A DNA stretch of 64,000 nucleotides from Scenedesmus sp. PABB004 (Eukaryota), in NCBI GenBank assembly GCA_014905635.1, contig CM026547.1:682001-746000 (forward strand). The letters are read 5' to 3'. Shown here piece after piece: positions 10,101 to 62,788 of this stretch. The notes under the pieces are model-generated. The model made no database searches. It was not told the DNA's origin and saw only the letters and a program-made list of their open reading frames with translations. How positions within the stretch are numbered: position 1 is the first letter of the stretch; each line of letters opens with the position of its first letter. The position numbers and the translations under genes were made by a program.

Positions 10101-11011
10101 CTTCGCACGGCAGCCTGGAGGGAGAGCTGCGGGCGGCAGCAGGCCGCATCCGCCAGCTGGAGCAGCGCCTGGCCACCTCGGAGCGGGACTTCCCGCCAGA
10201 GCTCAGCGGCATGCAGGCGCTGCTCGAGGCGCTGGCGGCGACCGCGGGCAGGCAAACCATGGGCATCCACGCCGCGCTGAGCAGCCTGCAGGGCCTGCTG
10301 CCCGCGCCCGGCGTCGGCGGCGGCCTGGGCGGCCTGGGCGGCGACGCGCACCTGCAGGGCCTGCTGCCCGTGCCCGGCTTCGGCGGCGGCCAGGGCGGCC
10401 TGGGCGGCGACGCGCACCTGCAGGGTCCGGTGCCGGCGCCCGGCTTTGGCGGCGGCCAGGGCGGCCTGGGCGGCGACGCGCACCTGCAGGGCCCGGTGCC
10501 GGCGCCCGGCTTTGGCGGCGGCCAGGGCGGCCTGGGCGGCGACGCGCACCTGCAGGGCCCGGTGCCGGCGCCCGGCTTTGGCGGCGGCCAGGGCGGCCTG
10601 GGCGGCGACGCGCACCTGCAGGGCCCGGTGCCGGCGCCCGGCTTTGGCGGCGGCCAGGGCGGCCTGGGCGGCGACGCGCACCTGCAGGGCCCGGTGCCGG
10701 CGCCCGGCTTTGGCGGCGGCCAGGGCGGCCTGGGCGGCGACGCGCACCTGCAGGGCCCGGTGCCGGCGCCCGGCTTTGGCGGCGGCCAGGGCGGCCTGGG
10801 CGGCGACGCGCACCTGCAGGGCCCGGTGCCGGCGCCCGGCTTCGGCGGCGGCCTGGGCGGCCTCGGCGGCGACGCGCACCTGCAGGGCCCGGTGCCGGCG
10901 CCCGGCGTCGGCGGCGACTCTTGCGGCATGGAGCTCGAGCTGCCCGACCTCCACGAGCTCCTCAGTGACTTCGCTGAGGAGGAGCTGATGGGCGGGGCAG
11001 AGTTTGGTTGA
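7174..11011 (+). CDS. Divergent AP2/ERF-like DNA-binding protein with long unknown central region and C-terminal 22-aa repeats; one apparent frameshift near 9375
   Basis: Spliced N-terminus GVEKHGSSSFRVRL...FGALGDATEAAHAADCARL...LNIPE echoes the AP2 pattern (GV..., EAAxAYDxA, LNFP). GT-AG introns at ~7368-7453, 7564-7658, 8268-8350, 9064-9142 and 9468-9568. Acidic tail, stop at 11009-11011, TGTAA at 11033. Confidence 0.55.
10285..10918 (+). repeat. Coding minisatellite, 66-bp unit, ~9.5 copies (GGLGGDAHLQGPVPAPGFGGGQ)
   Basis: CACCTGCAGGG recurs every 66 nt (10349, 10415, 10481 ... 10877); the central copies are identical. Confidence 0.95.
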
Positions 11012-11037: not shown

Positions 11038-11448
11038 CCTTTCGTTGCAAGCCCACACCCCGCGCAGCCAACACTAGCCCACTCCGCCGCGACGCTCCGC
11101 GCGCTCAAACAGGTCAGACGAGCCTGCCAGCCGTTTGCCGCCAGAATTGCGCGGAGTGCTCGGCGGCGACACGCGGCCGCGACGCCGGGCGGCGGAGGTC
11201 CCCGCGCGCGCGTGGAGGCCGCTGCTGCTCCTTGCCGCAACAGACCAGCCAGCAGCAGTTTTCCAGCGTGCAGCCGGCGTAGATGCAGCCACAGGTCGCG
11301 AGAGCAAGTGCTGAGCTGGATTGGGGTTTTACAGGGTTTAGGGGGCAGGGTTAGGCATTGTGTCATCGAGGCCGATCGAGCCCGGCGTCGTGGATGGCGC
11401 GGCGGCCCGAGGGGCCCCTCGGGCAGCTATCTTTGTCACGGCGGCCCG

Positions 11449-11625: not shown

Positions 11626-14373
11626 TCACTGCGGCTCCGCGGCGTCGGTTGGGCTGTACTTGGGGCTGGTTGGGCTGTACTTGGGGCTGGTTGGGCTGTA
11701 CGTAGGGCTCGTCGGCGAGTAGTTGGGGCTCGTCGGCGAGTAGGTTGGGCTGGTCGGGCTGTAATTGGGGCTCGTGGGCGAGTACGTAGGGCTGGTTGGG
11801 CTGTAGGTAGGGCTCGTCGGCGAGTAGTTGGGGCTCGTCGGCGAGTAGGTCGGGCTCGTGGGCGAATAGGTCGGGCTGGTTGGGCTGTAGTTGGGGCTCG
11901 TGGGCGAGTAGGTCGGGCTGGTGGGACTGTATGTAGGGCTGGTCGGGCTGTAGCTCGGGCTCGTCGGCGAGTAGGTCGGGCTGGTCGGGCTGTAGCTCGG
12001 GCTGGTCGGGCTGTAGCCGGGCGAGGTTGGGCTGTAGCCGGGCGACGTCGGGCTGTAGCCAGGCGAGGTCGGGCTGTAGCCGGGCGACGTCGGGCTGTAG
12101 CCAGGCGAGGTCGGGCTGTAGCCAGGCGAGGTCGGGCTGTAGCCAGGCGACGTCGGGCTGTAGCCAGGCGAGGTCGGGCTGTAGCCAGGCGACGTCGGGC
12201 TGTAGCCAGGCGAGGTCGGACTGTAGCTCGGGCTGGTGGGGCTGTAGCCGCCGCCGGGCGACGTCGCGGGCGAGAGCGTCGGCGCGCGGCTGGGGCTGAA
12301 CATGACGTCCCGCATCGGCGAGTACGACACGCCTTCGATCGCCTGGTCACTGCGCGGATCACGGGGCAGACACACACAGAAACACGCGCACAGGCGGGCG
12401 GGCGGCGGTGAGCGGAGGCAGCGCGCGGGCGGGGGCGGTTAGGGGGTTTAGGGTTAGGGGGTTAAACCCTAAAACCGTAAACCCTAAACCCCCCGCGGGC
12501 ACACGCACGGGTCTGGGTTGTGGAACGGCGTGCGCCCGGGCGTCATGTGCCCCGGCGTGCGCCCGGGCGTGAGGCCGACGTCCCAGTCGTGCGCGTCGTC
12601 GCCGTCCTCGAGCGCGAGGAGGTCTGTCGCGTGCGCGAGCTCGTCCTCGTTGAGCAGCAGGTCAAACGCGCCCGTGCCGAGCGGGCAGAGCTGGCCGAGC
12701 ATGATGTTCTCGCTCACGCCCTGTGTGTGTGTGTGGTGGTGGGGGGGGGGGGCAGAGAGGGGGAGGGGGGGAGAGGCGTGGGTGTGGGTGGGGTGGGGGG
12801 GGGGGGGGGGGGCGTCGCGCGCTGCGGCCAGAGCCCCCTGCCGCCCCGCCCCGGTCCCGGCGCCCCGCCGCCCTCGCCCCGCCGCCCCGCCCCGCCCCGC
12901 CGCTGTGACCCCGCGCCGCCCCCCGCACCGTCATGCGGTCCTTCTCCGCGTACACCGCCGCGCGCAGCAGGATGTCCACCGTCTCCTCAAAGCTGCACTG
13001 CGCGAGCGGCGAGGCCTCGGTGCGGTTGATGCCGTGCCGCGTGATCGCCATGAGGTGCCCGCGGCAGGTCATGACGTCGCACAGGATCGCGAGGTGCCTG
13101 CCGGGTTGACGCGATTCGCGCAGCGGCGGCGGCGGCGGCGGGGTGGGCCCCCGCGTGCCGGCAGGCCCACACGCGCGCGCGCGCGCTGCTGCCACACGCC
13201 CCCTGCCCGCCCCTGCTGCCGCTGCGCGCCCCTGCCGGCCCCCGCCGCCGCGCGTTGCCGCGCGCCTGTAGTTGACGTAGGAGCCGTCAAACTCGATGAC
13301 GTTGCGCAGCTCGCGCAGCAGCGCGGCGCGGCAGGCCTCGACGCCCAGGTCCTGGATGATCTCGATGAGGTCGTTGCTCATCGTGCGGCTCGCGTCCACG
13401 CCCGGCACCGGCAGCACCTGCGGCGCGGCACGGCGCGGCGACGGCCCGGCCGCGTGTCAGCGCGGGCCCCCGCCGCCCCTAGCGCTCTGCGCCCAACCCG
13501 CTCGACCTCTCCCCCTCCGCAGCCGCGCCGCCCCGGCCCGCCGCGCTGCGCCACGCCCCGGCCCTAAACCCTGCGCCGCCGCCACGCCCCGGCCCTAAAC
13601 CCTGCGCCGCCCCGCGCCGCGCCGCCGCGCGCCGCGCCGCCGCGCACCCCCATGAGGTTGACGCCCTCGGTGTCGAGCACCCACTCGTCCTCTTGGCGGT
13701 ACCCGTTGCTGCTGGCCACGTCGGGGAAGAGCGACTTTTGCTGGCGCAGGAAGACCTTGTTGATGCGCTCCACGCCCTTGGGGGAGGGGGACAGAGTGAG
13801 CGGGGGCAGAGCGAGCGGGGGCAGGGCAGAGGGCAGGGCGGAGCGGGGGAGAGCGTGAGCGCGCGGCCGCAGGGCGGGGGGACGGCTGGGCGACGCATCG
13901 GCGTGTGCGCGTGCACGCGCGCGTAGGGTTTAGGCGCGGCGGCCGCCGCGCCGTCTTCGCACCTGGAGCTTCATGTCTCGCAGGTACATCGCGTCCAGGC
14001 GCTTCAGCGTCTCGTCCGTCACCTCCTGCGCGCGGCGCGGCGCGGCGCGGCGTGCGCGGCACGGGGGTCAGCGCGCTCGCCGCATGCGCGCGCGCCAGCG
14101 CGCAGCAGCTCGCGGCGCGCGGCTCGCGCACACACACACGCGCACGTGCACCCAGCGCCGCACCGAGCCCCCTCCCCCTCCCACACACCTCTGCGTCGCC
14201 GCCGGCGCCCATGGGCTTAATCGCGCCCATCTCGTCGCCCTCCTCGCCGCCGCCGCCGCCGCCGAGGCCGCCGCCGCCGGCCTGGCCGCTCTCGTCGAGG
14301 ATGCGCAGCCGCACGACCTTGATCGCCGCGTTGTCGTCGCTCACGATCACGTCCAGCAGGTTCTGTGGGTGTC

Positions 14374-14440
<67 letters not shown>

Positions 14441-14487
14441 TGGGTGTGGGTGGGTGTGTGTGTGGGTGTGTGTGTGTGTGTGGGTGT

Positions 14488-14536
<49 letters not shown>

Positions 14537-17500
14537 GGGGGGGGGGGGGGGGGTGATCAGTGGATCAGTGCGCGGCGCGAGGCAGCAGCAGAGAGACGCG
14601 GCGGGTGCGGCCGCGGCCCGCGGGCGCGGTGCGCTCCGGCCGCAGACGCGGCGCGGCGCGGGCGCGGTGCGCTCCGTCGCAGACGCGGCGCGGGCGCGGT
14701 GCGCTCCGGCCGCAGACGCGGCGCGTGCCGCGCCCCCGCCGCACCTCGTACTCCTCTCCGATGCGGGCCTGGATGCGGTCCATTGTGATGTGCTTGTCCA
14801 CGGTCAGGCGGTCGTCGAGCACGAGGCGCAGCAGCCAGGGCGTGAGCCGCTCCGGCGTGTACGCCTCGACCGTGTACCAGTCCTCCAGCAGGCTCGCGTC
14901 CTCGCCCACATACGTCGCCTCGGGCGCGTCAAACTGGGGCGGGTCGTACCTGCGCCGCGCCACGCGCGGCGGTGCGGCCGCGGTGCGAGCGGTGCGAGCA
15001 GGCGGTCGGGCGGGTGGGCAGCCGGCGGGGGAGTGCGCGCGAGAAGGGCGCGGCGGCGCGCGGCACGCGGCGCGCGGCACGCGGCGCGCTGCGGAGGCCC
15101 ACGGTCGGCGGTGGGCGCACCAGATCTCGCTGCGCGCGATGATGCTGCGCATCGTGGTGTACTCGAGCAGGCACTGCATGTCCTTGGCCGCGTCGCGGTC
15201 GCGGCTCGCCTGGCCCAGCAGGCACACCTGCGCGGCCGCGCAGGCGCGGCAACGCCGCCGCCGCGCGCGCGGCGTCGTGGCCCGCCGTGCATACTCCAAC
15301 CGCCGCGCGGCCGCCGCCCTGAGCCCGAGGCGGCGCGGCGCGCGCGGCGCGCGTGCTGCCGCGCCGCGCCGCACCGTGAGCGAGGGCGTCTTGATGTTCT
15401 TGGCGAGGTTGATGATCTCGGTCAGGCGCGGCACGCCGAGCGTGACGTTCTTGGCCGACACGCCCGCAAAGTGGAACGTGTTGAGCGTCATCTGCGCGGG
15501 GCGGGTGCGTGTGTGAGGGTGAGGGGGGAGGGGATTGAGTGAGAGGGGTGACAGGAGATGCGGAGCGAGGGAGGAGTGAGCGAGGGAGGGAGTAAGCGAG
15601 GGAGGGGCGAGGGCGCGCGCGCGGCGCGGGGGCCGCAGAGCAGGGCTGCCGCGCCGCGCGTCCGCGCCTGCGTCGTGGGCTCGCCGATGCTCTGCGCCGC
15701 GACGGTGCCGATCGCCTCGCCCGGGTTGGCGATGGCGGCGTTGAAGCGCTCCTCGATCTCGCCCACAAGCCAGTCAAACGCCTGCCGCGACAGCCTGCGA
15801 GCGCGCGCGGGCCCGGGCGGGCGGGCGCGAGTCAGGCGCGCGCAAATTCTCGGGCGCGCGCTCCCGGCGCGCCGCCGCGCCTGCCGCGCGCGCGGCCGCG
15901 GCGCGCGCCCTCCCTCGCCCTGCTCAGCAGTGCTGGACCCGCCCTCGCGCGCCGCGCTCCCAGCTCTGGCTCCCGGCGTGCCCGCCCCCGGCCCACCTGT
16001 ACTCGCCCAGCACGCGCTTGCTCGCGAGCGTCGCGCGCAGGTGGGTCATGAAGGTCGTCGTCGCGTTGCGCTGCGCCTCGCGGCTCAGCTCGTCGTCGCC
16101 CTTCACCACGATTAGCTTCTCAGACAGCTCCTGCGGCGGCGGCGGCGGCGGCCGGCGCGGGCGCGCGCTCTGCCGCCGCCCGCGGCAGCACCCGCCGCCG
16201 GCGCGGCGCAGGAGCGCCCGCCGCCGGCGCGGCGCAGGAGCGCCCGCCGCCGGCGCGGCAGCGTCCGCCAGCCCCAGCGCCGCGCGCCTGCACGCGCTTG
16301 ACCACGTCGACCGCCGCGAGGTCGCCCGGCAGCGGCGGCTTGTCGGGGCCGCACGCGTAGGTGTTTTGCGCGTCCCAGATGAGGCGGCGCAGGTTGACGG
16401 GGATGTTGACGCCGCCGTTGCCGTGCGTGAGCACCTCGCCACGCATGACCGCCAGGTCGTCCAGCAGCGTGCGGAACTCGCCGCTCAGCACCTCCCTGCA
16501 GAGCGAGGCCGCGCGCGTGCGCGGGTGTTACGTGTTACGTGTTACGTGTTAAGAGGCGCCGAGCGAGCGAGCGAGCGAGCGCCGGCCGCGCCGCGAGCGG
16601 CGGCGGCGTGCGTGTGCAGGCCCCGGCGCAGGCGGCGGCGCGGGCGGGGCCCCCGCGGCGGCGGCGTGGCGCGACTCACCGCAGCTCGACGCGCGACCGC
16701 ACCTCCTCCAGCTGCTGCTGGCCGAGCCAGTCGGCGGCGCGGCCGTCGAGGGTGTCAAAGCTGAACACCTGCGACACCTTGCTCGCGTCCCAGCGCAGGT
16801 GCTCGATCGACTGCGGGTGCCGCGCGCGCCGCGGCGGGCGCGCGTCAAGACGCGGGCCCTTGCCGGCGCGCGCGCGCGCGGCGCAGCCCCGCTGCGGGCG
16901 CCGCGTCGTCCGCCGCCGCGTCCGCCGCCGCCGCGCCTGGCTCTCGATGCGGACGCCGTCCATGCCGTCCTCGCCGTAGAGGAACTGCACCACGTCGCCC
17001 GCGCTGTTGCGCACCGTGCCGTCGTACCTGCAGGGTTGCGGGCGCGCGGCGCGGCGCGGCGCGGCGGTCAGCCACACACCTGTCAGCCCCGCGCCCATCG
17101 GCCCCGCGCCCCCTCCCTGCGCGCCCCCGCCGCGCGCAGCACGAGCGGCCGCCCCGCAAAAGCAAAAGGCTCGCTGCCCCCCCCCCCCCGCCCCTCGGCC
17201 TCGCTCACTTGATGATGAGGTCCTCCATCGCCTTGACGAGGCGGCGCTGGATGTAGCCCGTGCTGCTCGTCTTGACCGCGGTGTCGATCAGGCCCTCGCG
17301 CCCGCCCATGGCGTGGAAGTAAAACTCCTGCGGTGGTGAGTGAGCAGGGCGGGGCGGCGGCGGTGCGCGGGGAGGTGGGGGCGACGGGTGGTGAGCCGGG
17401 GCGGCAGAGGCGCGGCGAGCGCGGGGCGAGGGGCGGGGCGCGGCGGCGGCGGCGCGGGCCGCCGGCGACGGCCCCCGGCGGCGCCGCGCGCCTGCGGGGA

Positions 17501-20500
17501 GAGGCCCTGCAGGTAGCTGTTCTCCACGAAGCCGCGCGACTCGGGGCCGTAGTCGTCCTTTGCAAAGTGGGGCAGCGTGCGGCCGACAAAGCCAAAGGGG
17601 ATGCGCTTGCCCTCCACGTTTTGCTGGCCCACGCAGGCCATCATCTGGGAGATGTTGATGAAGGAGCCCTTGGAGCCGCTGGTGACCATCTTGATGATGT
17701 TGTTGCTCCAGTCGAGGCTGTTCTGCGCCGTCTTGCCTGCGCGCGCGCGGGGGGGTGTGGGTGTGGGCGCGGGTGGTGTGTGTGTGAGTTGTGTGCGGGG
17801 GCGCGAGGTGCGCGCGGCATGGGGAGTGCGCGGGGCGCGGCGACGGGGGAAGCGCGCGCGCGCGCGCGGCGGGTCGTGCGTGCTGCTGGCGCGCAGCGCA
17901 GTGCAGCACGCGCGGCGCGGCGGCGCGCACCCGCGTCGTCGCGGGCCTTGTTGAGCACGCCGTTGACCTTCTGCTCGAACGCCTCCATCAGCGTGCGCCC
18001 GGGCATGCCCTCCAGCTTGCCCGTCTGCGCGGCGGCGGCGATGTGTGTGTGTGTGGGGAGGGGGGGGGGCAGGAGGTCGTCAGCCTCGGGAGCAGCGCGG
18101 CGGGTGCGCCGCAAACAGCTGGCACAGCAAAGCGTTCAGCAACACAGACCAATACGCAAAACTCATCAACCGCCGCGCCTGGTAGGCCTCGATGATGCGC
18201 TTCACGTCCTCCTTGGCGGTGTCGATGATGCTGCCGATCTTGGCCCCCGTCGCCGCGTCGGCCACGGTGTCGCCGATGCCGATCGACATGCCGTGCTGCG
18301 GTGCGCGGCGTGTGTGTGTGTGGGGGGGGGGGGGTGAGCGCGCGGGCGGGCGCGGCGTTGGGCAAGACGCATGGGTGAGCGTGCGTGTGCCAAGGTGGGT
18401 GGGAGGCGGCCGAGGGGCCCAAAAGGCCCCCAGGCGGCGGCGGCGCCAGCGCGGCGCTGCGGCGGGGGCACCTGCAGGAGCCAGTGGTTGACGGTGAACT
18501 GGGTGTTGTTGATCGTGTAGCGCGTCGCGTCGGGGCCGAGCTCGTTCATGACCGTGTGCACCAGACCGCCGCCGCCCGTGCCGAGCGTCTTCTTGCACAG
18601 GCAGCCTGCGGGCGGGCGGGCGGGCGGGCGGGCGGGCGTGGAGGGGTCAGCGTGGGTGGGTGGGTTGACGTGCGTGTGTGCGCGTGGGTGCGTGCGCATG
18701 TGCCAGCGTGCGTGCGTGCGCGCGGGTGCGTGCGCGGCACTTGCGCTCCACCCACGCGCAGAGATGTGGACACAGCGACAGTGCTGCGCACGCACCCACG
18801 CACACGCACGCACGTGCGCCACCACGTGGCGCCCGCGCCGCCGCCGCCGCCGCCGCGTGCCGCGTGCAGCGCTGCGCCGCCGCGCGCAACGCCGCCGCGC
18901 GCCGCGCGCCGCCGCGCCGCACCGTGGATGAGCACGCCGCGCTTGATGAGGATGGCACTGTCGTCGTAGCTGAACGCCCGCTCGTCGCCATCCTTGGCCC
19001 AGCTGCTCGTGCGCTCGAGGCTGATCGGTGGCAGGAAGCAGCTGAACACCTGCGGGCGCGCGCGGCGCGGCGCGGCGCGGCGCGGCGGCGGGGCGGGGCT
19101 CAGAGGCCGGCCCCTGGCTGCCTCTCGCCATCCCTGAGGAAGCGGCCCTCCGGCCCGACCGGCCGCGGGCCGCCGCCGACGCGGTCGCGCCCTGCGCGCG
19201 CGGTCCGAGCCCCACGCGCCTGCTTGCCCGTCCAGAGCGGCTGCGGCTTGAGGATGGTCGGCATCGGCACCGTGCCGTCCCACTCCTGCGCGGCCGTCGC
19301 GCGGCGCGGGCGCGGGCGCGGGCGCGGCGGCACGGCGGCGGCGACGCGGTGAGGGCGCGCGCGCGCTGGCGCGGCAGCGGCGGCGGCGGCGCTGAGCGGC
19401 CCCGCGGCGGCGTTGGGCGGCCCCGCGGCGGGCGCGGCGGGCGCGGCGGGCGCGGAGGGTGCTGCGTGGGCTCGCCTGGATGTTCATGAGGATGTTCATG
19501 ACGAGCTCCTTGGGGATGAAGGTGTCGCGCGCGCTCATGAGCTTGCAGCCCAGCAGCGTGTCCTGCGGGAAGCGCACAGGGCGCGGGTGCGCGTGTGGGC
19601 GTGCGCGCGTGCGGGCGTGCGGGCGCCGGCCGCGCGCACACACCACCACCACCGCCACCCTCAGGCTGACCCGAGCCCACGCCTGCCCCCTCAAGCCTGG
19701 CGTTGACGCAGCTGTCTTGATGGCGATGTGAGTGTCACCCAGATCGACATCAAGACAGCTGCGTCAACGCCAGCCTTGAGGGGCCAGGCGCGACCGCGGG
19801 CCAGCCCCGGGTGCCGCCAGCAGGGCCGGCGGCCTCTCCCACCCCCCCCCCTCCACACGCACACGCACACGGCGCCCCGCACGCACGCAGCGCCCCGCAC
19901 ACAGAGCCGCGCACAGGCACGCAGCACCCCGCGCCGCCGCGGCCGCGCCTGCACGATGCCGATGACGGGCTTGTTGGCCTGCGGGCTCACGATGTTGCGG
20001 GGGACCATCATGATGTTGGCCATCTCCGCACGCGTCTCATGGCTCTGCGGCGCGGCAGGCACGCACGCGCACGCAGTGGGGCCGCGGCGGGCGGGCGGGT
20101 CGGGCGGGCGCGGCGCGAGCGTGCTGGCGCGCGCCGGCGCGCGCAGCACAGCACGGCGGCCCTCGAGAGGGGCGGGCGTGCGTGCGTGCGTGCGCGGCGG
20201 CACCTGCGCGACGTGCATGTTCATCTCGTCGCCGTCAAAGTCGGCGTTGTAGGGCGTCGTCACGCTCAGGTTGAGCCTGCGCGCACACGCGGGCGCGGCG
20301 CACGCAGGGGGCGGCGGCGGGCGGTGCGGGGCCGCGCGTTTGGCGGCGCGCGGCCAGGCAGAACGCAGCGCGCGCCGGCGAGGGGGGGAGGCTCGTGCTT
20401 GCGTCGCGCGGCGCCGCGTCGCGCGGCGCGCACCTGAAGGTTGAGTAGGGCAGGATGCGCACGCGGTGGCCCATCATGCTCATCTTGTGCAGGCTGGGCT

Positions 20501-21965
20501 GGCGGTTGAACAGCACGAGGTCGCCGTTCTGCAGCTGCCGCTCGACCTTGTCCCCGATCTGGGGCGGGCGGGCGGGTGGGCGTGGGTGGGCGGGTGGGTG
20601 TGTGTGGGCGTGTGGGTGTGGGTGTGGGTGTGGGTGTGTGTGGGGGGGGGGGGGGGGGGGGACTGCCTGAGCGCCTCGCGCCCTCTCCACGCCGCACCCA
20701 ACACCCGCCCCGCCGCGCCGCCCAGCACGCCGCCGCCACGCGCGCGCGCGCGCGCGCCGTCTCCCGCCGCGCGCGCCTGCCGCCGCCATGCGCGCGCGCG
20801 CGCGCGCGCGCCCGTGCGCCGCCGCCGCCGCACCTCGAGCGCGCGCGACGCGCCGTCGCGGAGGTATGCGAGGTTGATGCGGCGGCCGTCCTTGCGAATG
20901 ATGAACTTGGCGCCCGTCTCGCCCGCGGGCGCGTGCGGGCCGAGCTCGACCAGGTGCTGCAGCCTGGGCGGCGGGGAGGGAGTGCGTGTGTGTGTGTGGG
21001 GGGGGGGGTGAGGGCGGGAGGTGAGGACGGTGAGGACGGCGGGGCGAGGGGGCAGGCGGGGCGGAGGGGAGGGAGTGCGGGCGGGCGGAGCGCGGCGGAG
21101 CGCGGCGGAGCGCGGCGGAGCGCGGCGGAGCGCGGCGGAGCGCGGCGGAGCGCGGCGCTGCGCTGCGGCCGGCGCGCGCACTTGGCGCGGTTGAGCGGCG
21201 TGACCGTCTCTGGGAAGGTGAGGTTCTGCGCGATGGACCAGGGCACGCCGAGCTCGTCGATGCCGATGTTGGGGTCGCCTGGCGGCAGGGTTAAGGGCGG
21301 GCGGCGACGGGGTTTAGGAGGGGTTTTACGAGGTTCAGGAGGGTTCAGGACGCGGAGGGGAATGGGGCGCGGAGCAGCGCCGGCCGGCGCGGGACGGCGG
21401 GGCGCCGCCGGCGGGGCGCGCGGAGCAGCGCGCCCACCCGTGATGACGGTGCGCGCGCTGAAGTCGACGCGCTTGCCCATGAGGTTGCCGCGGATGCGCC
21501 CGCTCTTGCCCTTGAGCCGCTGTGCGGGCACGCAGACGCACGCAGCGCGCGCGGACGCACGCAGCGCGCGCGGCGCGGAGGCGGCGCTCAGCACGCGTCG
21601 GGCTGCAGCCCCGCGCCGGCGCCACAGCCCCGCCGCCGCGCGGCCTGCAGCCCGCTGCCTCCGCCGCCGCCGCCGCGCCGCGCACGGGCAGCCCCCCGCG
21701 CGCGCCTGGCTGATCGACTTGATCGGCCGCCCGCTGCGCTGCGTCGCTGGGTTCATGCCGGGCAGGGTGTTGTCCATGTAGGTGGTCACGTGGAACTGCA
21801 GCAGCGCGACGTACTCGGTGATGATGTGCTGCGGCGAGCCGTTGGCGACCATGCGCTTGAGCGTGTTGTTCGCGCGCACGATCTCAACCAGCTTGTGCGT
21901 GAGGTCGTCCTCGCACCTGGGCGGGTGTGTGTGGGTGTGGGTGTGGGTGGATGGTGTGTGTGGGT

Positions 21966-22033
<68 letters not shown>

Positions 22034-23872
22034 CGGGCGGGCGAGAGCGAGCGGGCGCGCACGTGCGCGGGACTACGCCCGCCAGCCGCCGCGCACCCTC
22101 CCACCCACCCACACGCCCACAGGCCCACACGTGCCCCCACCCAGCCACGCACCGCGCGCTGGAGTCCATCATCACGCTCGGCCGCACCGGCGGCGGCGGG
22201 ACGGGCAGCGCGCTGATGAGCATCCACGCGGGCCGGCTGAACGCGGGGTTGAACCCCAGGGCCTTGCAATCCTCGTCGCTGATGCCAGACAGGATGCGGT
22301 AGCACTCCGCGGCGCTCAGCTCCTGCGCGCGCGCGCGTCGCGCTCAGCCCGGGGTCGGGGCCCCTGGCACGGCCCGTCACCGGCCAGCCCCCCCCCCTCC
22401 CCGCGGCGACCCGCAGATCCGCCGCAGCGCCGCCGCCGCCGCGCTGTGCGCGCAGCCTGCCCGTCCCCTCCCCCCTCTGCCCCCTCCGCCCCTCTCCTCT
22501 CGCCCTCCGCCCCTCTCTTGTCGCCCTCCGCCCCTCTCCTCTCGCCCTCCCACCTGCTTGCGGTCGACCTCGGCCATCGCGCTCGCCGCCTCCTCGTCCT
22601 TGGGCTTGGGGAACTCCATGAGGATCTTCACGCCCTCAAGCTTGTACGCCGGCTGCGGGTTGCCTGCGCGCACACGCCCGCGCCGGCCGCGCCGGCCGCG
22701 CGGGGCGGCGGCGGGGGCACCGCGTCGGCACGAGCCGCGCGCCGCTCCCGCGACCCGGCCGCGGGGCGCCGCGCTGCGCTGTGCTGCGCATCGCCGCGCA
22801 TCGCCGCGCCGCGCACCGCCGGCGTCGTCGTAGCGCTTGGACGCGCACGCGCCGACAAAGTGGCGCAGCCGCGCCTGCGGCTTGCGCAGCAGCAGCCCCG
22901 CGCGGTACTTGGGGTCCGCCTGCGGTGGTGGTGGGGTGATCGGCGGCAGCGGGCGGCGGCGGGGGCGAGAGGTGAGCGGCCGCCGCCGCTGCCGCCGCCG
23001 CTGCCGCCGCCGCTGCTGCCGCCGCTGCCGATGCTGCCGCCGCCGCTACCAGGCAGCCGCTGCCGGCCCGTCTCGCGCTGCCGCTGCCGGCCTGTCGCGC
23101 GCCGCGCGCCGCTGCTGCCCGCCCTCCGCCGCGCCTTGTCGAGCAGCAGCTTGGAGTTGTAGTGCCCCACGCAGCGCAGCACGCGGATGATGGTCTTGAT
23201 GAACCCGCCTGCGCGGCGCGCCGGCGCGTGCGGCGGCTCGCACGCACGCCGGGGGGCTCGCACGCCGCGCCCGCGCTGCTGCCGCTGCGCCGCTGCCGCT
23301 GCTGCCGCCGCCGCCGCGCGCTGCCTGCCTCCCTCCCTCCCTCCTCCCCCTGCATGCCCGCGGCGCCGCCACGCACAGTGGTACACCGGCTGCGCGAGCT
23401 CAATGTGCCCAAAGTAGCCGGGGCAGTCGTGCATGTTTGCGCCGTCGGTCGTGCACATGCCGCCAAACTTGTCCATCGTGCCCATGCGCGGGTCGCTCAG
23501 CCCGCCCGCCTTGGCCTTGCCCTTCTCGTACAGCTCGCCCGCCTCGACCTGGCACACGCTGTACAGCCTCTGCACGCGGCGCGCGCGGCGCGGGCGCGGT
23601 GGTTGGCCGCAGCAGCGGCGGCCGCGGCTGCGGCGCGGCGCGTGCCCCGGCGGCCGCGCCGGCTGCGCAGGCGCGCCCGGTGTTGCCGCGGGGCGCGGCG
23701 GCCGCGGCGGCGGGGCGCGGGAGCGGGGGCGGCAGCGGCAGCAGCGGCAGCAGCAGCGGCGGCGGCGCCCGCGGGCGCTCACGATCTCGTCCGGGTTCCA
23801 GACGCCCAGCTGGATGGCCTTCACCCGCTTCACGGGCGCCCGGGAGGGCGTGAAGCGGTCCATGGTCGTCAT
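11626..23872 (-). CDS. RPB1: DNA-directed RNA polymerase II largest subunit, 36 exons
   Basis: Motifs [29 protein letters not shown], catalytic NADFDGD (~20228-20248), [51 protein letters not shown] and YSPTSPx CTD. Exons by hand: 23872-23783, 23569-23377, 23208-23135, 22919-22817, 22663-22554, 22322-22153, 21916-21706, 21519-21438, 21278-21182, 20963-20834, 20558-20434, 20276-20204, 20044-19949, 19562-19476, 19285-19220, 19049-18923, 18605-18472, 18295-18179, 18024-17931, 17736-17492, 17327-17209, 17027-16937, 16810-16680, 16495-16288, 16130-15997, 15794-15668, 15491-15375, 15227-15121, 14949-14745, 14362-14189, 14025-13963, 13776-13648, 13417-13266, 13097-12929, 12720-12509, 12349-11626. 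The start could alternatively be the ATG at 23863. Confidence 0.98.
11629..12246 (-). repeat. RPB1 CTD heptad array: 28 full YSPTSPx repeats plus a terminal [10 protein letters not shown]
   Basis: 21-bp periodicity; direct translation. Confidence 0.97.
12437..12494. repeat. Inverted (head-to-head) degenerate telomere-like tract in the last RPB1 intron
   Basis: GGTTAGGGGGTTTAGGGTTAGGGGGTT followed directly by AAACCCTAAAACCGTAAACCCTAAACCCCCC. Confidence 0.8.
14376..14534. repeat. (GT)n microsatellite in RPB1 intron, reading (CA)n in the pre-mRNA just upstream of the acceptor
   Basis: Long TG run with occasional GG interruptions, followed by poly-G. Confidence 0.95.
19681..19789 (-). ncRNA. 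Long intronic inverted repeat, candidate pre-miRNA/hairpin RNA in RPB1 intron 13
   Basis: Arms 19681-19734 and 19736-19789 are reverse complements with 5 mismatches in 54 nt and a perfect 26-bp core. The inverted repeat itself is certain; the RNA-gene call is inference. Confidence 0.5.
21086..21156. repeat. 10-bp tandem repeat (GCGGAGCGCG) x ~7 in RPB1 intron
   Basis: Directly visible periodicity. Confidence 0.9.
21925..22030. repeat. (GT)n microsatellite in RPB1 intron 6
   Basis: TG run adjacent to the acceptor at 21917-21919. Confidence 0.95.
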
Positions 23873-33861: not shown

Positions 33862-35592
33862 ATGGCGGGCACGGGGGGCTTCCGGGGCGTCTCGGCCGCG
33901 CAGGATGCGCGGTTCAGCAAGTGCGTGCGGTACAGCAAGCCGCGGGGGCTGCCGGGCTCGCGCGGCGCGGCGCACGCCCGGGCGCCCGCCGCCGCCGCTG
34001 CTCACGCGCCGCGCCGCCCGCCCGCGCGCAGCAAGAGCAAGGCGGCGCTCAAGAAGATGAAGTTCCCGCCGGAGCTGGACCTGCCGGTCGACCACGACAA
34101 GGTGCGCGGCGGCGCGCGCGGCGCGGCGGCGGCCGGCGGCGGCGGCGAGCAGCGGCGAGCAGCGGCGCCGCGCCCGCGCGTGCTGCTGCGCCGCAGGTCA
34201 ACTGGACGGTGATGAAGGAGTGGGTGGCCAAGCGCGTCACGGAGCTGCTGGGCATCGAGGAGGAGGTGCTCATCTCGATGATCCACAACCACCTCACCGA
34301 CCAGCGCACGCCGGCCAAGGAGATGCACGTGGAGCTGCTGCCCTTCCTCGAAAAGAACACCACGCTCTTCATGAAGGAGCTCTGGAGCATGCTGCACAGC
34401 GCGAGCAGCAACGAGAGCGGCGTGCCGCAGCAGCTGCTCGACGCGAAGCAGAAGGAGCTGCAGGAGCGGCGCGAGCGCGAGGCGGCCATTCAGGTGCGCG
34501 CCGCGCAGGCGCGCCGCGGCAGGCGCCCCCCGCACGGCAGCCGCCCCCGCGCGCCGGCCCACGCGCCGCGGCCGCCGCCGCCGCCGCCGCGGGCCGCGCA
34601 GGAGGAGATCGCGCGCAAGCGCGCCGAGGCGGAGCGCGAGCGCGCGGCGTTGGAGGCGCGCCTCGCGGCCGCGGCCGTGGCGGGCCGGCCCAGCCGCTTC
34701 GACCAGCCGGGCGGCGCGCTGCCGCCGGGCACGGTGCTGCCGCCGCCGCCGCCGGGCGCCGCGCCGGCCGGCGGCGGCCTGCGGCGCGGGCGGTGGGACC
34801 GGGACAAGGAGCCGCCGGCCGCGCCGCCGGCCGCGCCAGGTGACAAGGCCCGGCGCAGCCGCAGCCGGAGCCGCGAGCGCGCCCGCGGCGGCCGGCGCAG
34901 CCGCAGCCGGAGCCGCGAGCGCGCCGGCGCCCGGCGCGACCGCCGCAGCAGCCGCAGCCGCAGCCGCAGCAGGAGCCGCGACCGGTACCGGCGGCGCGAG
35001 CCCGCCAGGTGCGCGCGCGGGCGGGGCGCGCCGCGGCTGCGTTTGAGGCCGCCCGGCGCCCCGCCGACGCTCGCTGCCGCGCGCCGCCGCTCGCAGGTAC
35101 GACCGCGACCGCCGTGACATCTGGAGCGACCGCGACGGCGAGCTGCGGCGCGAGCGCGAGCGCGGCGTGCGGGAGCGGAGCCGGAGCGGGGAGCGGCGGC
35201 GCATGCGCTCGCGCAGCCCGCGCCGCGCCGACCGCAGGCCCGCGGGCGGCGAGACCCAGGCCGGCGACGCGGGCGAGCGGCGCGACGCGCCGGCGGCGGC
35301 GGAGCGCGGGGCCTCGCCCGGCCAGGGCGGCAGCGAGGGCGAGGGCCGCGCCAAGCGCGCCAAGAAGGAGCGCAAGCACAAGAGTGGCAAGGAGAAGAAG
35401 CACAAGCGCAGCAAGCACCGCAGCGACAGCGAGGACGACCCCGACGCGGCGCCGGGCGGCGGCGCGGAGGGCGGCGGCGCGGGCGCGGGCGCGGGCGGCG
35501 AGGCGGCGGCTGGAGACGGCGACGCAAGCGCGGGCGCGGGCGGCGAGGCGGCGGCTGGGGATGGCGCAGCGCCCGCGCCGGAGAGCCAGTGA
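33862..35592 (+). CDS. SRRM1: PWI-domain serine/arginine repetitive matrix protein (SRm160/SRRM1-like splicing coactivator)
   Basis: MAGTGGFRGVSAAQDARFSK..LKKMKFPPELD..VD..KVNWTVMKEWVAKRVTELLGIEEEVL...LLPFLEKNTTLFMKELW..GVPQQLLDAK (PWI domain), then RS dipeptide tracts and a K-rich tail; GT-AG introns. Confidence 0.9.
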
Positions 35593-56022: not shown

Positions 56023-57035
56023 ATGCAGCCGCTGCTGCGCGCGCGCTGCGGCTCGGTGTTCGAGCTGGTTCAGGGCTGGGATGAAGTCCAATCTGGGGCG
56101 CTGCGCCGCATTTTCGGGGCCTCAGCGCGCCCTGCCGCGGCGGCGGGCGTGGGCCCGGCGCTGGCGGCCAAGTACGGCCTTCCGTCCTCGAGTGAGCAGC
56201 TGGTGGCGAGCGTGACCAACCGGTTCAGCCTGGAGCAGACCTGGTTCAACCGCGCGCGAACGCGCAAGCCGCAGACGTTTCCGAGCGGCGCGGAGCAGCT
56301 GGACCCGACGGGCGGCGGCGGGGCGCGCTGCGACTTCTGCTCCCCGAGCACGCTGACCGCGACGGACGAGTTTGGGCGCATCGAACTGGAGCACGCCGTG
56401 ACCGGCAGGTGCGCGCCGCGGCCGCCGCGGCCGGGCAGGCGGCGGCGCCTCCTCGCCGCGCGCCGCGCCCGAGCGCCGCCGCCCTCCTGCGCGCAGCAAC
56501 TTGTTCAAGTACGCCGAGCCCTGCCACGGCATCGTTCTGCTGCGCCGGCACGACCCCCTCGCCTTCTCGCAGGCCGAGCTGAGCGACGTGCTCGACGCGA
56601 GCTGGCTGGTGCGCGGCTGCCGCGGCGCGCCCGCTCCCCGCCCGCGCGCCGCCGCCTCGCCCGCCGGCGGCGGCGGAGCGCGGCGGCGGCGGAGCGCGGC
56701 GCCTCTCGCGCGCCCCTCGCTGGGCTGAGCGCGGGCGCCCCCCCCCCCCCCCCCCCGCCACTGCCCGCCGCAGTGGTTCCAGGCGAGCCACGCGCTGCAC
56801 CCGGCGGCGGGCGAGCCATTCCTGCTCTGGAACTGCCTGCCCCGCGCGGGGGCGTCCCAATATCACGGCCACGCGCAGACGCTGCTGACCGAGGTGCCGC
56901 TGCCGGCCGCGAGCCGCCTGCGCGGCGCGGCGGCCGCGTACGCGGCGCGGCACCCGGGCTGCCCCGACTACTACACCGAACTGCTCTCCGCGCACGCGGC
57001 GGTGGGACTCGCGCGGCGGCTCGCGCTGCCCCTTG

Positions 57036-57096
<61 letters not shown>

Positions 57097-57684
57097 GCGT
57101 CTGTCGCGGGCGCGGGCGCGGGCGCAGCCGACACGGCCACGGCTGTGCAGGAGCACGTGGCGTGGGCGTTTGCGTCGCTCACGCCGATCAAGGACCAGGA
57201 GGTGGTCGTGCTCGGCGCGCACCTCTGCTGCCCGGCGTTCCAGCGCATGCTGCACGCCGCGCTGCGCGCGCTCATCGACGGCCTCGGCAGCAGCGCGTTC
57301 AACGCGGGCGTGCTCAACCTGGACCTCTCCGCGCCGCCGCCGGCGGGCGTCGGCGCCGAGCGGCGCCACTGGCGCAGCGGTGGCGGCGCCGGCGCTGGCG
57401 GCGGGGCGAGCAGCAGCAGCAGCAGCAGCGCCAGCGTGGCGAGCATGGCCAGCACGGCCAGCACGGCCGGCGACGGTGGCGACGGCGCCCCCGGTCTGCC
57501 GCCGCCGCCCGGCTGGCCGGCAGCGCCGGTCATGGCGCGCGTGGTGAGCCGCGGCAGGGCCACGAGCGCGGCGAGCGACTTTGGCGGACTTGAAGTGATT
57601 GGCGGGGCATCCATCGGGCACACAGACCCGTATGACGTTGTCGCAGCTCTGGATGAGCAGCTCGGTCTCGCCCCGGGGCCGTGA
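56023..57684 (+). CDS. HIT-superfamily, GalT-like nucleotidyltransferase/hydrolase domain protein
   Basis: EQTWFNRARTRKP, CDFC, SNLFKY and WNCLPRAGASQYHGHAQ (GalT-branch GASxxHxHxQ motif, ~56828-56878); GT-AG introns at ~56409 and ~56609; stop at 57682-57684. Confidence 0.75.
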
Positions 57685-57949: not shown

Positions 57950-60900
57950 ATGCGCCTGTGCTCGGCGCCCCGCTGCCCGGCGCCGCGGGGCGCGGCGCGG
58001 CGCGTGGCGCGCGGCGCGCCGGGGAGCAGCAGCAGCGCCCCGCGCGCCAGGCTGAGCAGCCTGGCGCGCGCGTCAACCCTGCCCAGCGTGCCGTCGTTCA
58101 ACAGCCTGGGGGACCTCAAAATCATTGCCGACGTGAACGCAGAGTCCGCGGCCAGCGTCGAGTCCCTGGAGCTGCGCGACGCGCGCGTGAGCGTCAAGCG
58201 CGGGGCCGCGCCCGGGCGGCGGGGGAGCCCAGCTCCCTGTGACTTGCCGGGCGCGGCGCGCGGCGCGCCGCCGCGGGGCGCTGCTGCGCGCGCCGCGCCG
58301 CCGCGGGCGCTGCTGCGCGCGCCGCGTCGCTGGCGGGCGCCCCCGGCCGCGCCGACGCCCGCCCGCACGGCGGCCCCCGCCCTGCTGCGCACAGGCCGTG
58401 TCCTACGTGAGCCGGCGGCGCCTGGACGCGGCCGACTTTGACGCGGACGCCGTGGACGACGAGGGCCTGCCGCTCGTGTACAACGAGGCGCGCATCGCAG
58501 CGTTCTGGTCCCAGCGCCCCGGCGAGCTCGCGAGCCGCTGGACGCGCTTCGCCGCCATCTCCGGTGCGCGCGCGGCGCGGCGCCGCAGCGCCTGGCAGGC
58601 CGCCCCGACGCGTCGCGCGCCGCGCCGGTGCCCCAGACCCCGCCACGCGCGCCCGACCCCGCCGCGCCGCCGCCCCTCGTGCCGCCCCTTGCGCAGCGCC
58701 GTGGCTCACCAAGGTCGCCAACGCGGTGCTGACGGGCAAGCTGGAGGCGCGGCAGGTCGAGCTCGCGCGCGACGCGGTCGACAACCTGGAGCGCCTCGGC
58801 CCCACCTTCATCAAGCTCGGCCAGATCGCCTCAATCAGGTGCGCCCACCGCGGCCCGCGCCGCCCGCGCGGCCCACACCAGCGCCGCCGCGGGCTGCCGG
58901 CAGCCGTGGCGGCGGCAGCTGCTCCGGCGGCGCCGTGGCGCCGGCTGCGCAGCCGCGCGCGCCCCGCACGACCGCTCGCTGTGCTGTGCGCGCAGGCCCG
59001 ACGTGCTGCCGCCGCCGGTGCTGGCGGAGCTGGCCAAGCTGCAGGACCGCATCCCGCCGTTCAGCACGCGCGAGGCGCGCGCGATGGTGGAGCGGGAGCT
59101 CGGCGCGCCGATCGACGCGCTGTTCAGCGAGTTCAGCGACCGCCCCATCGCCGCGGCGTCGCTCGCGCAGGCGCGCGCGGCGCGCCCGCCGCCGCGGCGC
59201 ATCCGCCGCCGCGCCCCGCGCGCCGGGGAGCTCGGCCGCCGACGCTCATCCTCTCTCTCTCTCTCTCTCGCGCGCGCTCGCCGCGGCCCGCAGGTCTACC
59301 GCGCGCGGCTGCGCGGCAGCGGGCAGGAGGTGGCGGTCAAGGTGCAGCGCCCCGGCGCGCTGTCCACGATCAGCAAGGACCTCTACGTGCTGCGCCGCGG
59401 CGTGGGGCTGTACGAGGCGCTCGTGCGGCGCTTCACCGCGCAGACGACCGACTACCAGCAGCTCGTCAGCACCTTTGCCGAGGTGCGGCGGCCGGCCAGC
59501 ACCTGCACCGCGCGGGGGCGCCGGCGCGGAGCGCGGCGGCGCGCGGCGCACACGCGCGTGCCGGCCGGGGGCTGCAGACGGACCCCGCCGCCGCCGGTGT
59601 CGCCGCCAGGGTCTGTACACGGAGATGGACTTTCGCAACGAGGCCCTCAACGCGGTGCGCATGAAGGAGGTGCTCGCCGAGGCGGAGGGCCTGCGCGGCG
59701 ACCGGCTGGTCATCCCGCAGCCTGTCATGGAACTCACGACGCGGTGCGGCGCGGCCCCGCGCGGCGCGGGCGCGGCGCGGGCGCCGCCTGGCCTGCGGCG
59801 GGGCGTGCTGCCCGTGCGGCGGGGGCGAACGCCGCTCAGCCTCGTGTTGAGTGCCGCTCACCGCCGCCGCCGCGCCGCGCCCGCCGCGTCGTCCCGGCGC
59901 GAGCGCAGGCGCGTGATGACGATGGAGTGGGTGACGGGCGTCAAGCTGACCACGCTCCCCGCGGAGGAGGTGCGCGAGCTCGTGGGCGTCGGGCAGGAGG
60001 CCTTCCTGGTGCAGCTGCTCGAGGTGAGGCGGGGCAGTGACGCAGGGAGTGTGGCGGCAACTTGAGGCGGCGGCACCGCAGCGGCAGCGGCGGCGAGCGC
60101 GCGGCAGCGGCGCGCACCGTGCTGCGCGCCGCGCGCGCTGCCGGCCGGCCGGCCCACGCGCACCTGCGCCGCCCGCGCCTGTGTGCCCGCGCCGCCCAGG
60201 TCGGGTTCTTCCATGGCGACCCCCACCCCGGCAACCTGCTCAAGGTGCGCGTTGCGCTGCGCGCTGCGCCGCCGCGTCGCCGGCCCTCGCCGCCGCCGTC
60301 GCCGCGCCGCTGCGCTGCCGCGTCGCCGGCCCTCGCCGCCGCCGCCGCCGCGCCGGCGCCGCGCCCACGCCGCGCCCGCGCGCGCGGCCCCGCAGGTGAC
60401 GGAGGGCCCGGACGCGGGGAAGCTCGCGCTGCTCGACTTTGGGCTGGTCGCGGAGATTCCCGCGCAGGACCGCGCCGCAATGGTCTCGGCGACGATCCAC
60501 CTCGCCAACCGCAACTGGGCGGCGCTGATCGACGACTTCATCGCCCTCGAGTTCCTGCCAGACGACGCAAACAGGCGCGCGCTCTGCGCGCCGCGCCGCG
60601 CCGCACCCCGCGCCGCGCCGCGCCGCGCCGCGCCGCGCCGCCGCCCCGAGCGCGGGGGGCTCCGTGCCGCATGCCCCGTCCCACGCGCCGCCGCTCGCCG
60701 CCGCTCGTGCGCCGTGCGCCGCTGGTGCGCGTCAGGGCTGTGATCATCCCGGTCATGGAGCGCGTGCTGGGGCCCTACCTGCGCGGCGGGGGCGCCAAGG
60801 CGTTCAACTTCCAGGCGCGGCGCCGCGCGCTCCCGCACGCAGCGCAGCGCGCACGGCACGCACACAACGCTCACAGCATGCACAGCACATGCAGCGCGCG

Positions 60901-62788
60901 CTCTCCCCCGCCGCGCCGCGCTCTCTCTCACCCGCCGCGCCGCACGCCACTCGCCGGCCCCCTCGCGCCGTGCTGCAGGCGCTGAGCCAGGACCTGCTGA
61001 CGACGACGATGGAGATCCCTTTCTCTGTCCCGCCCTACATGAGCCTTCTCGCGCGCAGCGTCGCGACGCTGGAGGGCATCGCGCTCACCGCCGACCCGCA
61101 GTACCAGATGGTCGCGCAGGTGTGCGGGGCGGCGGCGGTGGCCGCGCCCCCGCGGCGGCGGCGGCGGCCGCGCCCCCGCGGCGGCGGCGGCGGGGCGCAG
61201 CGCAGCGCGCGGCGAGCCGCGCGGTCAGTCCGCAGCGAAGCACCCGCCTCGCTGCGGACTGCCGACCGTCCCGCCCTGCCCCCGCCCCGGCCCCCGCCCC
61301 CCGTTGCCGCCTGCCGCCCCCAGGCCTACCCCTTTGTCGCGCGCAAGGTGCTTCGCGACGACGGCAGCGGCACCGCCGCGCTGCTGCGGGACCTGGTCTA
61401 CGACGAGCGCGGCAACATGCGCCCGGGGCGCCTCTCCGCGCTGCTGCAGGCGCGGCGCGCGCGCGCGCAGCGCGCGGCGCACGCGCCGCGCCCCCAGCGC
61501 GCTCCCGGCCGCGCCCGCTCGCCGCCGCGCGCGTGCGGCGGCTCCCGGCCGCCGCGCCCCCCTCCCTGAGCGCCGCGCCCGCCCGCCCGCCGCCCGCCCG
61601 CCCGCCCGCCGCCGCCGCGCTCTCTGCCCGGCCCCGTCCCCCTCTGCCGCGACTGCACAGGCGGCGCTGGGGTATGTGAGCGAGCAGAGCGAGGGCTTTG
61701 TCGACTTTGACGCGGTGCCCGCGGAGGGCGCGAGCGCGGGCGAGCTGATGGGCTTCGTCCTCTCACCCGAGGCGCGCGAGCTGCGGCCGCTGCTCACCGG
61801 CTGGCTCGCGGGCGGCGCGGACCTCGTGTTGCGCGACCGGTGCGAGCCGGCAGCCGCGCGGCGCGGCCCGGGGCCGGCAGCGGCCGCCGCGTCGGCCGCA
61901 CGCGCGCGCCCCCGCCTGACGCCGCCGCCGCGGCCGCCCGGCCGCGCGCAGGGCGCGCAAGGCCGCCGCAGCGCTGCCGGGCCTGCTCACGCCGCGGCTG
62001 CCGTTTGCGGGGCTGCTCGGCCTGCCGTCGCTGCCGAGCCCGCCGCCGCCGCCCGTGTTCCTGCCCGGCGTCGGCCTGCTGAGCCTGACTGACGCGGTGG
62101 AGCGGCTCGCGCCGCCGCTGAGCGACCAAGAGGTGGTCTACCTGCAGAGCCTGCAGGAGCTTGTCGCGAGTGCGTGGGGGGCGCCGCCGCCGCCCAGCGC
62201 GGCAGCGGAGCGGCGCGGCCGCCGGCGCGGGGGGCCCCGTGCCGCGCCGAGCGGCAGCCCACCCGCCGCACCCGCGCCGCGCCTGCAGGCGTGCTGGGCG
62301 TGCCGCCGGCGCAGCTGGAGAGCCCGGGGCTGGACACGCTGCTGTCGCTCGTCACAAACCCCGGCGAGCAGGCGCGCGAGCTGCAGGCCGCGCTGACGTC
62401 GCTCGCGCGCGGCGACGCCGGCCAGGCGGCCGCCGCGGGCGACGTCGCGGTGGGCGTGGTCGAGCAGGTCGCGGCGACGCTGGCCGAGCGCGCGGGCGTG
62501 CCGGTGGACGTGATGTTCCCGATGCGCAGGGCGATGCTGGCGGGGCTGGGCCGCAGCGGCGGCCCCGCGCCGGCGAGCGCCGCGCCCGCCCTGCCGGTGG
62601 GCGCCGGCGCCAGCAGCGGCAGCGGCGGCAGCAGCCACGCCCTCGGCGCGGGCGGCCACAGCGGCGCCGGCGGGCACAGCGGCCACAGCGGCGCCGGCCT
62701 GGGCGTGCTGGAGGGCGCCGTGGCGGTGGCGGCAGCGGCGAGCACCACCACGAGCAGCGGCAAGCAGCTGGTCATGAGGCAGCTGTGA
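57950..62788 (+). CDS. ABC1/UbiB atypical kinase (ABC1K), probably plastid-targeted, 15 exons
   Basis: LGPTFIKLGQ, RPD..LAKLQDRIPPF, PIAAASLAQVYRA, VAVKVQRP, EMDF.NEA.N, MEWVTG, FFHGDPHPGN, LLDFGL, FSVPPYMSLLARS..TLEG and AYPFVARK; R/S/A-rich transit-peptide-like N-terminus; TGTAA at 63059. Confidence 0.93.

Follow-up and report, generated by a model that had tools for sequence, protein, structure and literature searches.

Can the second nucleotide of an intron, normally T, be C at about one intron in three, and where is this exchange accepted? The question is raised by the RPB1 gene of the alga Scenedesmus sp. PABB004, which lies in the stretch of DNA analyzed here (contig CM026547.1, positions 682,001 to 746,000; 64,000 nucleotides [nt], termed the window, position 1 being its first letter) and whose protein calls for many introns with a GC donor and an AG acceptor (GC-AG introns). 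The source alga could be identified from the window itself, since it encodes exactly the NRPB1 protein P0002 of this strain. A homolog search with the translation of a single exon (81 amino acids [aa]; 17492-17734, minus strand) returned P0002, deposited as NRPB1 [Scenedesmus sp. PABB004] and 1761 aa long, at 100% identity, together with orthologs from Tetradesmus, other Scenedesmus, Chromochloris, land plants, and transcriptomes. The PABB004 assembly is named GCA_014905635.1 in PMC12571836; Table 1 of this paper reports 39.8 Mb, 78.5% GC, and 7,092 genes. In 2-kb bins, the GC content of the window ranged from 74 to 81.5%.

GC donors in the RPB1 gene

We first located P0002 in the window by exact-match chaining, which placed it letter for letter in 36 exons on the minus strand, from 23872 to 11629. 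With the stop codon (11628-11626), the RPB1 coding region covers 11626..23872 and contains 35 introns, and the heptad repeats of the C-terminal domain lie in the last exon. The spliced coding sequence has 5286 nt, ends with the stop codon, and carries G or C at 96.8% of its third codon positions. We then enumerated every boundary shift between neighboring exons and kept those that reproduced P0002 exactly. Each of the 35 introns had exactly one solution of the form G[T/C]...AG, which yielded 24 GT-AG and 11 GC-AG introns; the remaining consistent shifts corresponded to noncanonical pairs (for example, GG..CA, AG..GC, or CG..GG) and gave an identical mRNA.

The 11 GC-AG introns are all on the minus strand, with the donor G at the higher coordinate. 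Ten of them are in phase 0: intron 3 (22920..23134; GACAAG/GCGCGG), intron 7 (21520..21705; AGCCAG/GCGCGC), intron 13 (19563..19948; GTGCAG/GCGCGG), which with 386 nt is the longest of the gene, intron 14 (19286..19475; ATCCAG/GCGAGC), intron 15 (19050..19219; AAGCAG/GCGCGT), intron 18 (18025..18178; TACCAG/GCGCGG), intron 20 (17328..17491; CCGCAG/GCGCGC), intron 22 (16811..16936; AGCCAG/GCGCGG), intron 24 (16131..16287; GTGCAG/GCGCGC), and intron 26 (15492..15667; ACGCAG/GCGCGG). Intron 33 (13098..13265; CTACAG/GCGCGC) is in phase 2. A first-pass annotation of the window, made from the letters alone, had called GC donors at 11 of 35 introns, and its positions were identical to those obtained by the exhaustive enumeration. 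As P0002 requires them, these 11 introns are already part of the deposited annotation.

P0002 is itself a prediction, and we therefore used an alignment with 21 orthologs as a check. Wherever an ortholog was aligned at one of the 11 GC junctions, the alignment was free of gaps there; two orthologs were unaligned at 23134 and one each at 21705 and 13265. Two of the orthologs, P0012 and P0040, derive from transcripts, and the former is the one without alignment at 13265. Most of the GC junctions lie inside strongly conserved motifs, such as SISQ/RLKGK (intron 7, gap-free in 20/21 orthologs, those aligned there), GIVQ/DTLLG, EPTTQ/MTLNTF, and VNY/RHLAIL; intron 3 is collinear with the orthologs in a less conserved region.

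As a further source of evidence, we used our own protein-to-genome spliced aligner, in which GT and GC donors have equal weight. Queried with orthologs other than P0002 itself, it found 34, 34, and 32 of the 35 introns of RPB1. It erred where conservation is poor, and GC was the donor in 9 of its 12 wrong calls, as expected with the dinucleotide GC 5.5 times commoner than GT in the RPB1 region (2354 versus 428 occurrences). When GC donors were disallowed, the scores of the ortholog alignments dropped from 7670 to 6944 and from 6331 to 5625, and GT plus GC gave the top score among six donor sets tried. The control with decoy donors was not clean, as decoy sets scored close and a decoy beside the true site costs about one residue. 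Taken as gene models, the GC donors are real requirements, and protein collinearity indicates that they are probably used in vivo.

The exons preceding the 11 GC donors all end in AG (10 in CAG and 1 in AAG). By exon end, there were 10 GC and 6 GT donors after CAG, 1 GC donor after AAG, 3 GT donors after GAG, and 15 GT donors but no GC donor after exons that do not end in AG (AG versus non-AG, Fisher's exact test, P = 5.5e-4). Downstream of the junction, the RPB1 donors had G at +3 in 35/35, C at +4 in 27/35, and G at +5 in 33/35. Both the restriction to AG-ending exons and the usual donor G(T/C)GCG(C/G/T) had been described in the first-pass annotation, and our tabulation returned the same values.

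Several RPB1 introns have other features of their own. Long (CA)n or C-rich tracts stand directly upstream of several acceptors in place of a polypyrimidine tract (14370-14545, 21930-22045, and 20600-20660, minus strand). Intron 13 holds a 143-nt near-palindrome (19664-19806) whose 71-nt arms, separated by 1 nt, show 86% complementarity; the GC content of this intron is 76%, against a mean of 82%, and the palindrome looks like a hairpin-type insertion. Short telomere-type repeats resembling TTTAGGG/CCCTAAA occur in intron 35 (~12440-12500) and intron 32 (~13560-13625), and similar motifs are found downstream of the gene, near 11330-11360.

A second gene and the exonic context of GC donors

A coding-potential scan combined with Pfam matches located a gene for an ABC1 atypical kinase (ABC1K), whose conserved core covers 58076..62563 on the plus strand, with Pfam ABC1 matches on its exons. 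Spliced alignment of 12 orthologs defined 14 introns, each backed by 8 to 12 of the 12 orthologs, of which 10 were GT-AG and 4 were GC-AG. The GC-AG introns are located at 59171..59293 (GCGCAG/GCGCGC; 12/12 orthologs), 60575..60735 (AAACAG/GCGCGC; 10/12), 60815..60978 (TTCCAG/GCGCGG; 12/12), and 61450..61660 (CTGCAG/GCGCGG; 9/12). All four donors follow CAG and read GCGCG(C/G), and disallowing GC donors lowered the alignment score from 2877 to 2468. A de novo exon-chain finder with RPB1 as its sole training gene recovered 13 of the 14 ABC1K introns, its single error being a false GC donor without exonic AG, 6 nt upstream of the true GT. Unlike for RPB1, no 100%-identical deposited protein was present among the 120 matches listed for ABC1K, and the gene may be missing, differently modelled, or under-annotated in the public annotation with its 7,092 reported genes.

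Among the in-frame G[T/C]-AG options up to 75 nt to either side, the 15 GC introns of RPB1 and ABC1K each ranked first, and the best GT alternative was 9.6 to 34.8 nats worse, under a scoring model that was trained on these introns and is therefore partly circular. Pooling of the two genes gave 15 GC-AG introns among 49, i.e., 31% (exact 95% confidence interval, 18 to 45%), compared to a plant baseline of 1.2% (binomial P ~2e-17). The rate of about 30% of introns put forward in the first-pass annotation is in line with this value as far as the two genes go; as a genome-wide figure, it does not follow from them.

The dependence on the exon end was reproduced in the pooled set, with 15 GC and 14 GT donors after AG and 0 GC and 20 GT donors after other ends (Fisher P = 7e-5). 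The nucleotide at -3 also had an effect, as GC donors made up 14/22 of the donors after CAG and 0/5 of those after GAG (P = 0.016). Viewed from the donor side, positions -3 to -1 read CAG for 14 of the 15 GC donors (AAG for the other one) versus 8 of the 34 GT donors. We scored each donor against the canonical 5' splice-site consensus, with G at +3 counted as half a match, and found a mean of 5.57 of 9 for GC donors and 5.56 for GT donors, with no GC donor below 4.5. Such an equal mean match of the two classes is what compensation predicts. Apart from position +2, the introns were uniform, with G at +3 in 49/49 donors, C at +4 in 38/49 (78%), and AG at 49/49 acceptors (48 CAG and 1 AAG).

Base composition provides a reference for position +2. 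Since the interiors of the introns contain C at a frequency of 0.449 and T at 0.082, a +2 position free of selection would be C in ~85% of cases, against the 64% observed in the CAG context. This difference suggests that the selection for T left in this context is only weak and has nearly gone.

To compare one orthologous intron between species, we turned to short proteins of the open reading frame (ORF) type (<=420 aa, n = 27) that read through the exon-intron border at RPB1 intron 20. In a phase 0 read-through, a GT donor is translated as Val (GTN) and a GC donor as Ala (GCN). The 27 proteins continued with the next exon (EFFFH...) in 16 cases, with G in 2, with Val in 7, and with Ala in 2, and therefore relatives carry GT (7) or GC (2) at this intron. 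For this one intron, the comparison, which the first-pass annotation had proposed for telling GT-to-GC switches from new intron gains, would fit switching at an existing intron rather than a gain. The same approach applied to an ABC1K exon gave mixed, uninterpretable tails. We also scanned metagenomes for RPB1 and obtained 80 loci, most of them covering RPB1 in 1 to 4 tblastn pieces and with at most 70% identity; these were set aside as an intron comparison, being largely intron-poor genes of distant organisms. In two close relatives (P0004 and P0008), the ORF passes without a break from the upstream exon (…NKARDDAG) into the exon that ends at intron 20, so that either intron 19 is absent in these relatives or the contigs are partly spliced transcripts.

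We propose that the GC donors of PABB004 probably belong to GC-AG introns of the ordinary U2 type, made very frequent by GC pressure together with exonic compensation, a behavior already known of this type. The strongly GC-biased composition of this genome (78.5% GC) would replace the T at +2 of the 5' splice site by C, and the replacement would be tolerated only where an exonic CAG pairs fully with U1 and offsets the pair lost at +2. Elsewhere, selection would keep GT, and the acceptors would stay AG. A drift of +2 to C wherever exonic AG compensates had already been put forward in the first-pass annotation, and the exon context, the equal consensus match, and the second gene all fit it.

Counterevidence, alternatives, and neighboring genes

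Several points weigh against this proposal. The sample is small, with 49 introns from two conserved genes in one 64-kb window and the confidence interval given above, and support at the GC donors comes from protein collinearity rather than from RNA. Phase and context are partly confounded, because with 96.8% G or C at third codon positions an exonic AG is impossible in phase 1; the seven phase 1 introns indeed had exonic AG in 0/7 cases and all used GT. Within phase 0 alone, the dependence on AG reached only P = 0.048.

A third gene (~56029-57670, plus strand), for which 16 homologs were spliced-aligned and no Pfam family was found, supplied a possible exception. Compared to GC-AG shares of 11/35 in RPB1 and 4/14 in ABC1K, it has two GT introns and one ambiguous GC intron. 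The GT introns follow CAG (56409-56496; chosen by 16/16 homolog alignments) and CTG (56609-56773; 9/16). The candidate GC-AG intron (57023..57150; CGGCTC/GCGCTG), chosen by 11/16 alignments, follows CTC. An in-frame GT donor at 57002 would remove VGLARRL, a segment with an AH..GL core common to all 12 aligned homologs. The gating by exonic AG may thus be leaky, given a putative GC donor after CTC that has no acceptable GT alternative. The candidate intron spans a long (GGC)n tract, across which read-through is 2 nt out of frame, and an indel in the assembly could therefore also account for it.

The de novo finder was also run on the rest of the window, where it made 122 calls. Of these, 34 were artifacts in a tandem array, and the 88 left included 45 GC introns, 33 of them without a preceding AG. 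These numbers count against strict gating at face value, but false calls of the finder favor GC donors without AG (1/14 in the calibration), and the 88 calls are too unreliable to count. We restricted the analysis to the 23 GC calls with well-supported flanks and asked for which of them no GT alternative came closer than 9.6 nats, the smallest margin among the 15 GC introns of RPB1 and ABC1K. Five of the eight calls in AG context passed, as did 6 of the 15 in non-AG context, the latter again being at odds with strict gating; 4 of these 6 read equally well as in-frame coding sequence. Because the method is biased to GC donors without AG, the de novo calls neither confirm nor refute strict gating.

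The tandem array that misled the finder, by way of 34 "introns" separated by zero-length exons, is a minisatellite at 51420-54955 made of 90.7 copies of a 39-nt unit (88% matches) and devoid of coding potential. It is preceded by a 36/108-nt array at 50970-51526.

One alternative explanation goes beyond passive tolerance: the G(U/C)GCG code would be recognized by a U1 5' end, a U6 ACAGA box, or a U1-C that co-evolved with it. We regard this as unlikely. If it were true, some GC donors would work without exonic AG; the donor at 57023 after CTC would be one candidate, and the de novo calls at 5837 and 49057 would be others.

A changed 5' splice-site machinery that reads +2 differently, either through a U1 5' end adapted to G(U/C)GCG or through altered U1-C, U1-70K, U5, or U6, seems to us quite unlikely. 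It would account for a consensus that is unusual beyond +2, in the invariant G at +3 and the frequent C at +4. In canonical pairing, a C at +4 mismatches the U1 5' end. Nor could U1 pairing by itself easily account for the candidate donor after CTC. Against a changed machinery, 15/15 GC donors follow exons that end in CAG or AAG, the distribution expected of donors still subject to canonical pairing with U1. Moreover, the putative U1 5' end has the consensus sequence AUACUUACCUG in two algae with comparable fractions of GC-AG introns, Aureococcus and Micromonas pusilla (PMC3033335). By this precedent in other algae, the altered U1, U5, or U6 that the first-pass annotation had considered would appear to be unnecessary. 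The 64-kb window gave no match to any Rfam family, small nuclear RNAs included, and no tRNA by ARAGORN.

That the GC donors are artifacts, arising from T-to-C errors of the assembly consensus at +2 or from the fitting of gene models to DNA with such an excess of GC over GT dinucleotides, is very improbable. The aligner and the gene finder do put false introns preferentially at GC, and decoy dinucleotides are used too when offered. However, ortholog alignment without gaps, with no predictor involved, places each of the 15 sites to the nucleotide, and GT plus GC scored highest among the donor sets tried. Errors would not pick CAG-ending exons and spare the 20 others (0/20 affected), and Ala (GCN) is found at the start of intron 20 independently in two relatives.

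Finally, it is hardly credible that the introns are not of the GC-AG type, for although each junction permits other border pairs with an identical mRNA, only one solution per RPB1 intron (35/35) combines an AG acceptor with G at +1, and U12-type introns are opposed by donors that read GCG(C/A)G at +1 to +5 in 15/15 cases, without the (G/A)(T/C)ATCC motif and unlike the GCATCC motif of PMC1557818, and by the AG found at all 49 acceptors.

Other genes of the window were seen in passing. A PWI-domain gene (34030-35502, plus strand; E = 1.9e-23), from the domain family of SRm160-type splicing factors, has two well-defined introns among the de novo calls, with GT after AAG and GT after CAG. A very large gene with long exons (36233-50914, minus strand) has matches to REJ, DUF7507, and C-type lectin domains. 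The last exon of the upstream gene (10300-10990, plus strand) encodes a Gly-rich repeat of 21 residues (GGDAHLQGPVPAPGFGGGQGGL) in ~9 tandem copies. In the 1- to 11-kb region, a homolog search with the exon at 8854-9066 found none.

Comparison with known GC-AG introns

GC-AG introns make up ~1.2% of plant introns (PMC6310983), an average of ~1.2 to 1.3% of introns (PMC6310983; PMC3033335), and 0.37 to 0.87% in five model species (PMC1557818). In animals and plants, in which U2-type GC-AG introns amount to ~0.4 to 1.3%, the mismatch of +2 to U1 is compensated at other positions of the 5' splice site, and switching between the GT and GC subtypes is common (PMC1557818; PMC6310983). PABB004 resembles these systems in both respects and differs from them by a frequency that is ~25-fold higher. 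Its compensation is exonic only, as positions +3 to +6 follow the GYGCG of the species in GC and GT classes alike.

The first-pass annotation had held the pattern to be highly unusual, and in this it did not stand, as papers of 2011 and 2014 had already described the same phenomenon in other algae rich in GC. GC-AG introns make up 39.6% of introns in Aureococcus anophagefferens, 22.2% in Micromonas pusilla, and 7.7% in Chlorella sp.; the authors ascribed this pattern to genomic G+C content, with the putative U1 5' end of the first two at consensus (PMC3033335). Pelagophytes have 14 to 17% GC-AG introns (bioRxiv 10.1101/2024.10.30.620910). For PABB004, no description of GC-AG introns was found in a literature search that covered mostly titles and the beginnings of abstracts, subscription journals being largely outside its scope, and a term search of the available text of PMC12571836 returned no mention of "splice" or "intron". 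The phenomenon and its likely cause are already published for other algae (2011 to 2014), and PABB004 is an extreme new instance of it. Its 78.5% GC is the highest among the algal genomes that we compared from the available literature; Scenedesmus sp. NREL 46B-D3 stands at about 57% (PMC12571836). In this genome and others like it, gene prediction would fail at about every third intron unless GC donors are allowed, and PABB004 provides an extreme data point for how base composition erodes the most conserved nucleotide of introns and which compensations permit it.

Like Aureococcus, Micromonas, Chlorella, and the pelagophytes, PABB004 has a very GC-rich nuclear genome and, in the two genes checked against orthologs, GC-AG introns tens of times above the ~1% level and AG acceptors that are kept. 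Unlike these algae, it is a chlorophycean with a higher GC content, and its fraction of GC-AG introns comes from 49 introns. The strict CAG context is seen in PABB004, and the available portions of the sources on these other algae contained no statement of such a context that we met. Emiliania huxleyi, with 56% GC donors among 241 curated junctions and nine GC junctions verified by reverse transcription-PCR (PMC4028052), is similar in that many of its introns have GC in place of GT but a canonical acceptor, and in that high GC content serves as the explanation. It differs from PABB004, which is known from genomic sequence, by proof at the RNA level and by a higher fraction of GC donors at a lower GC content (65%).

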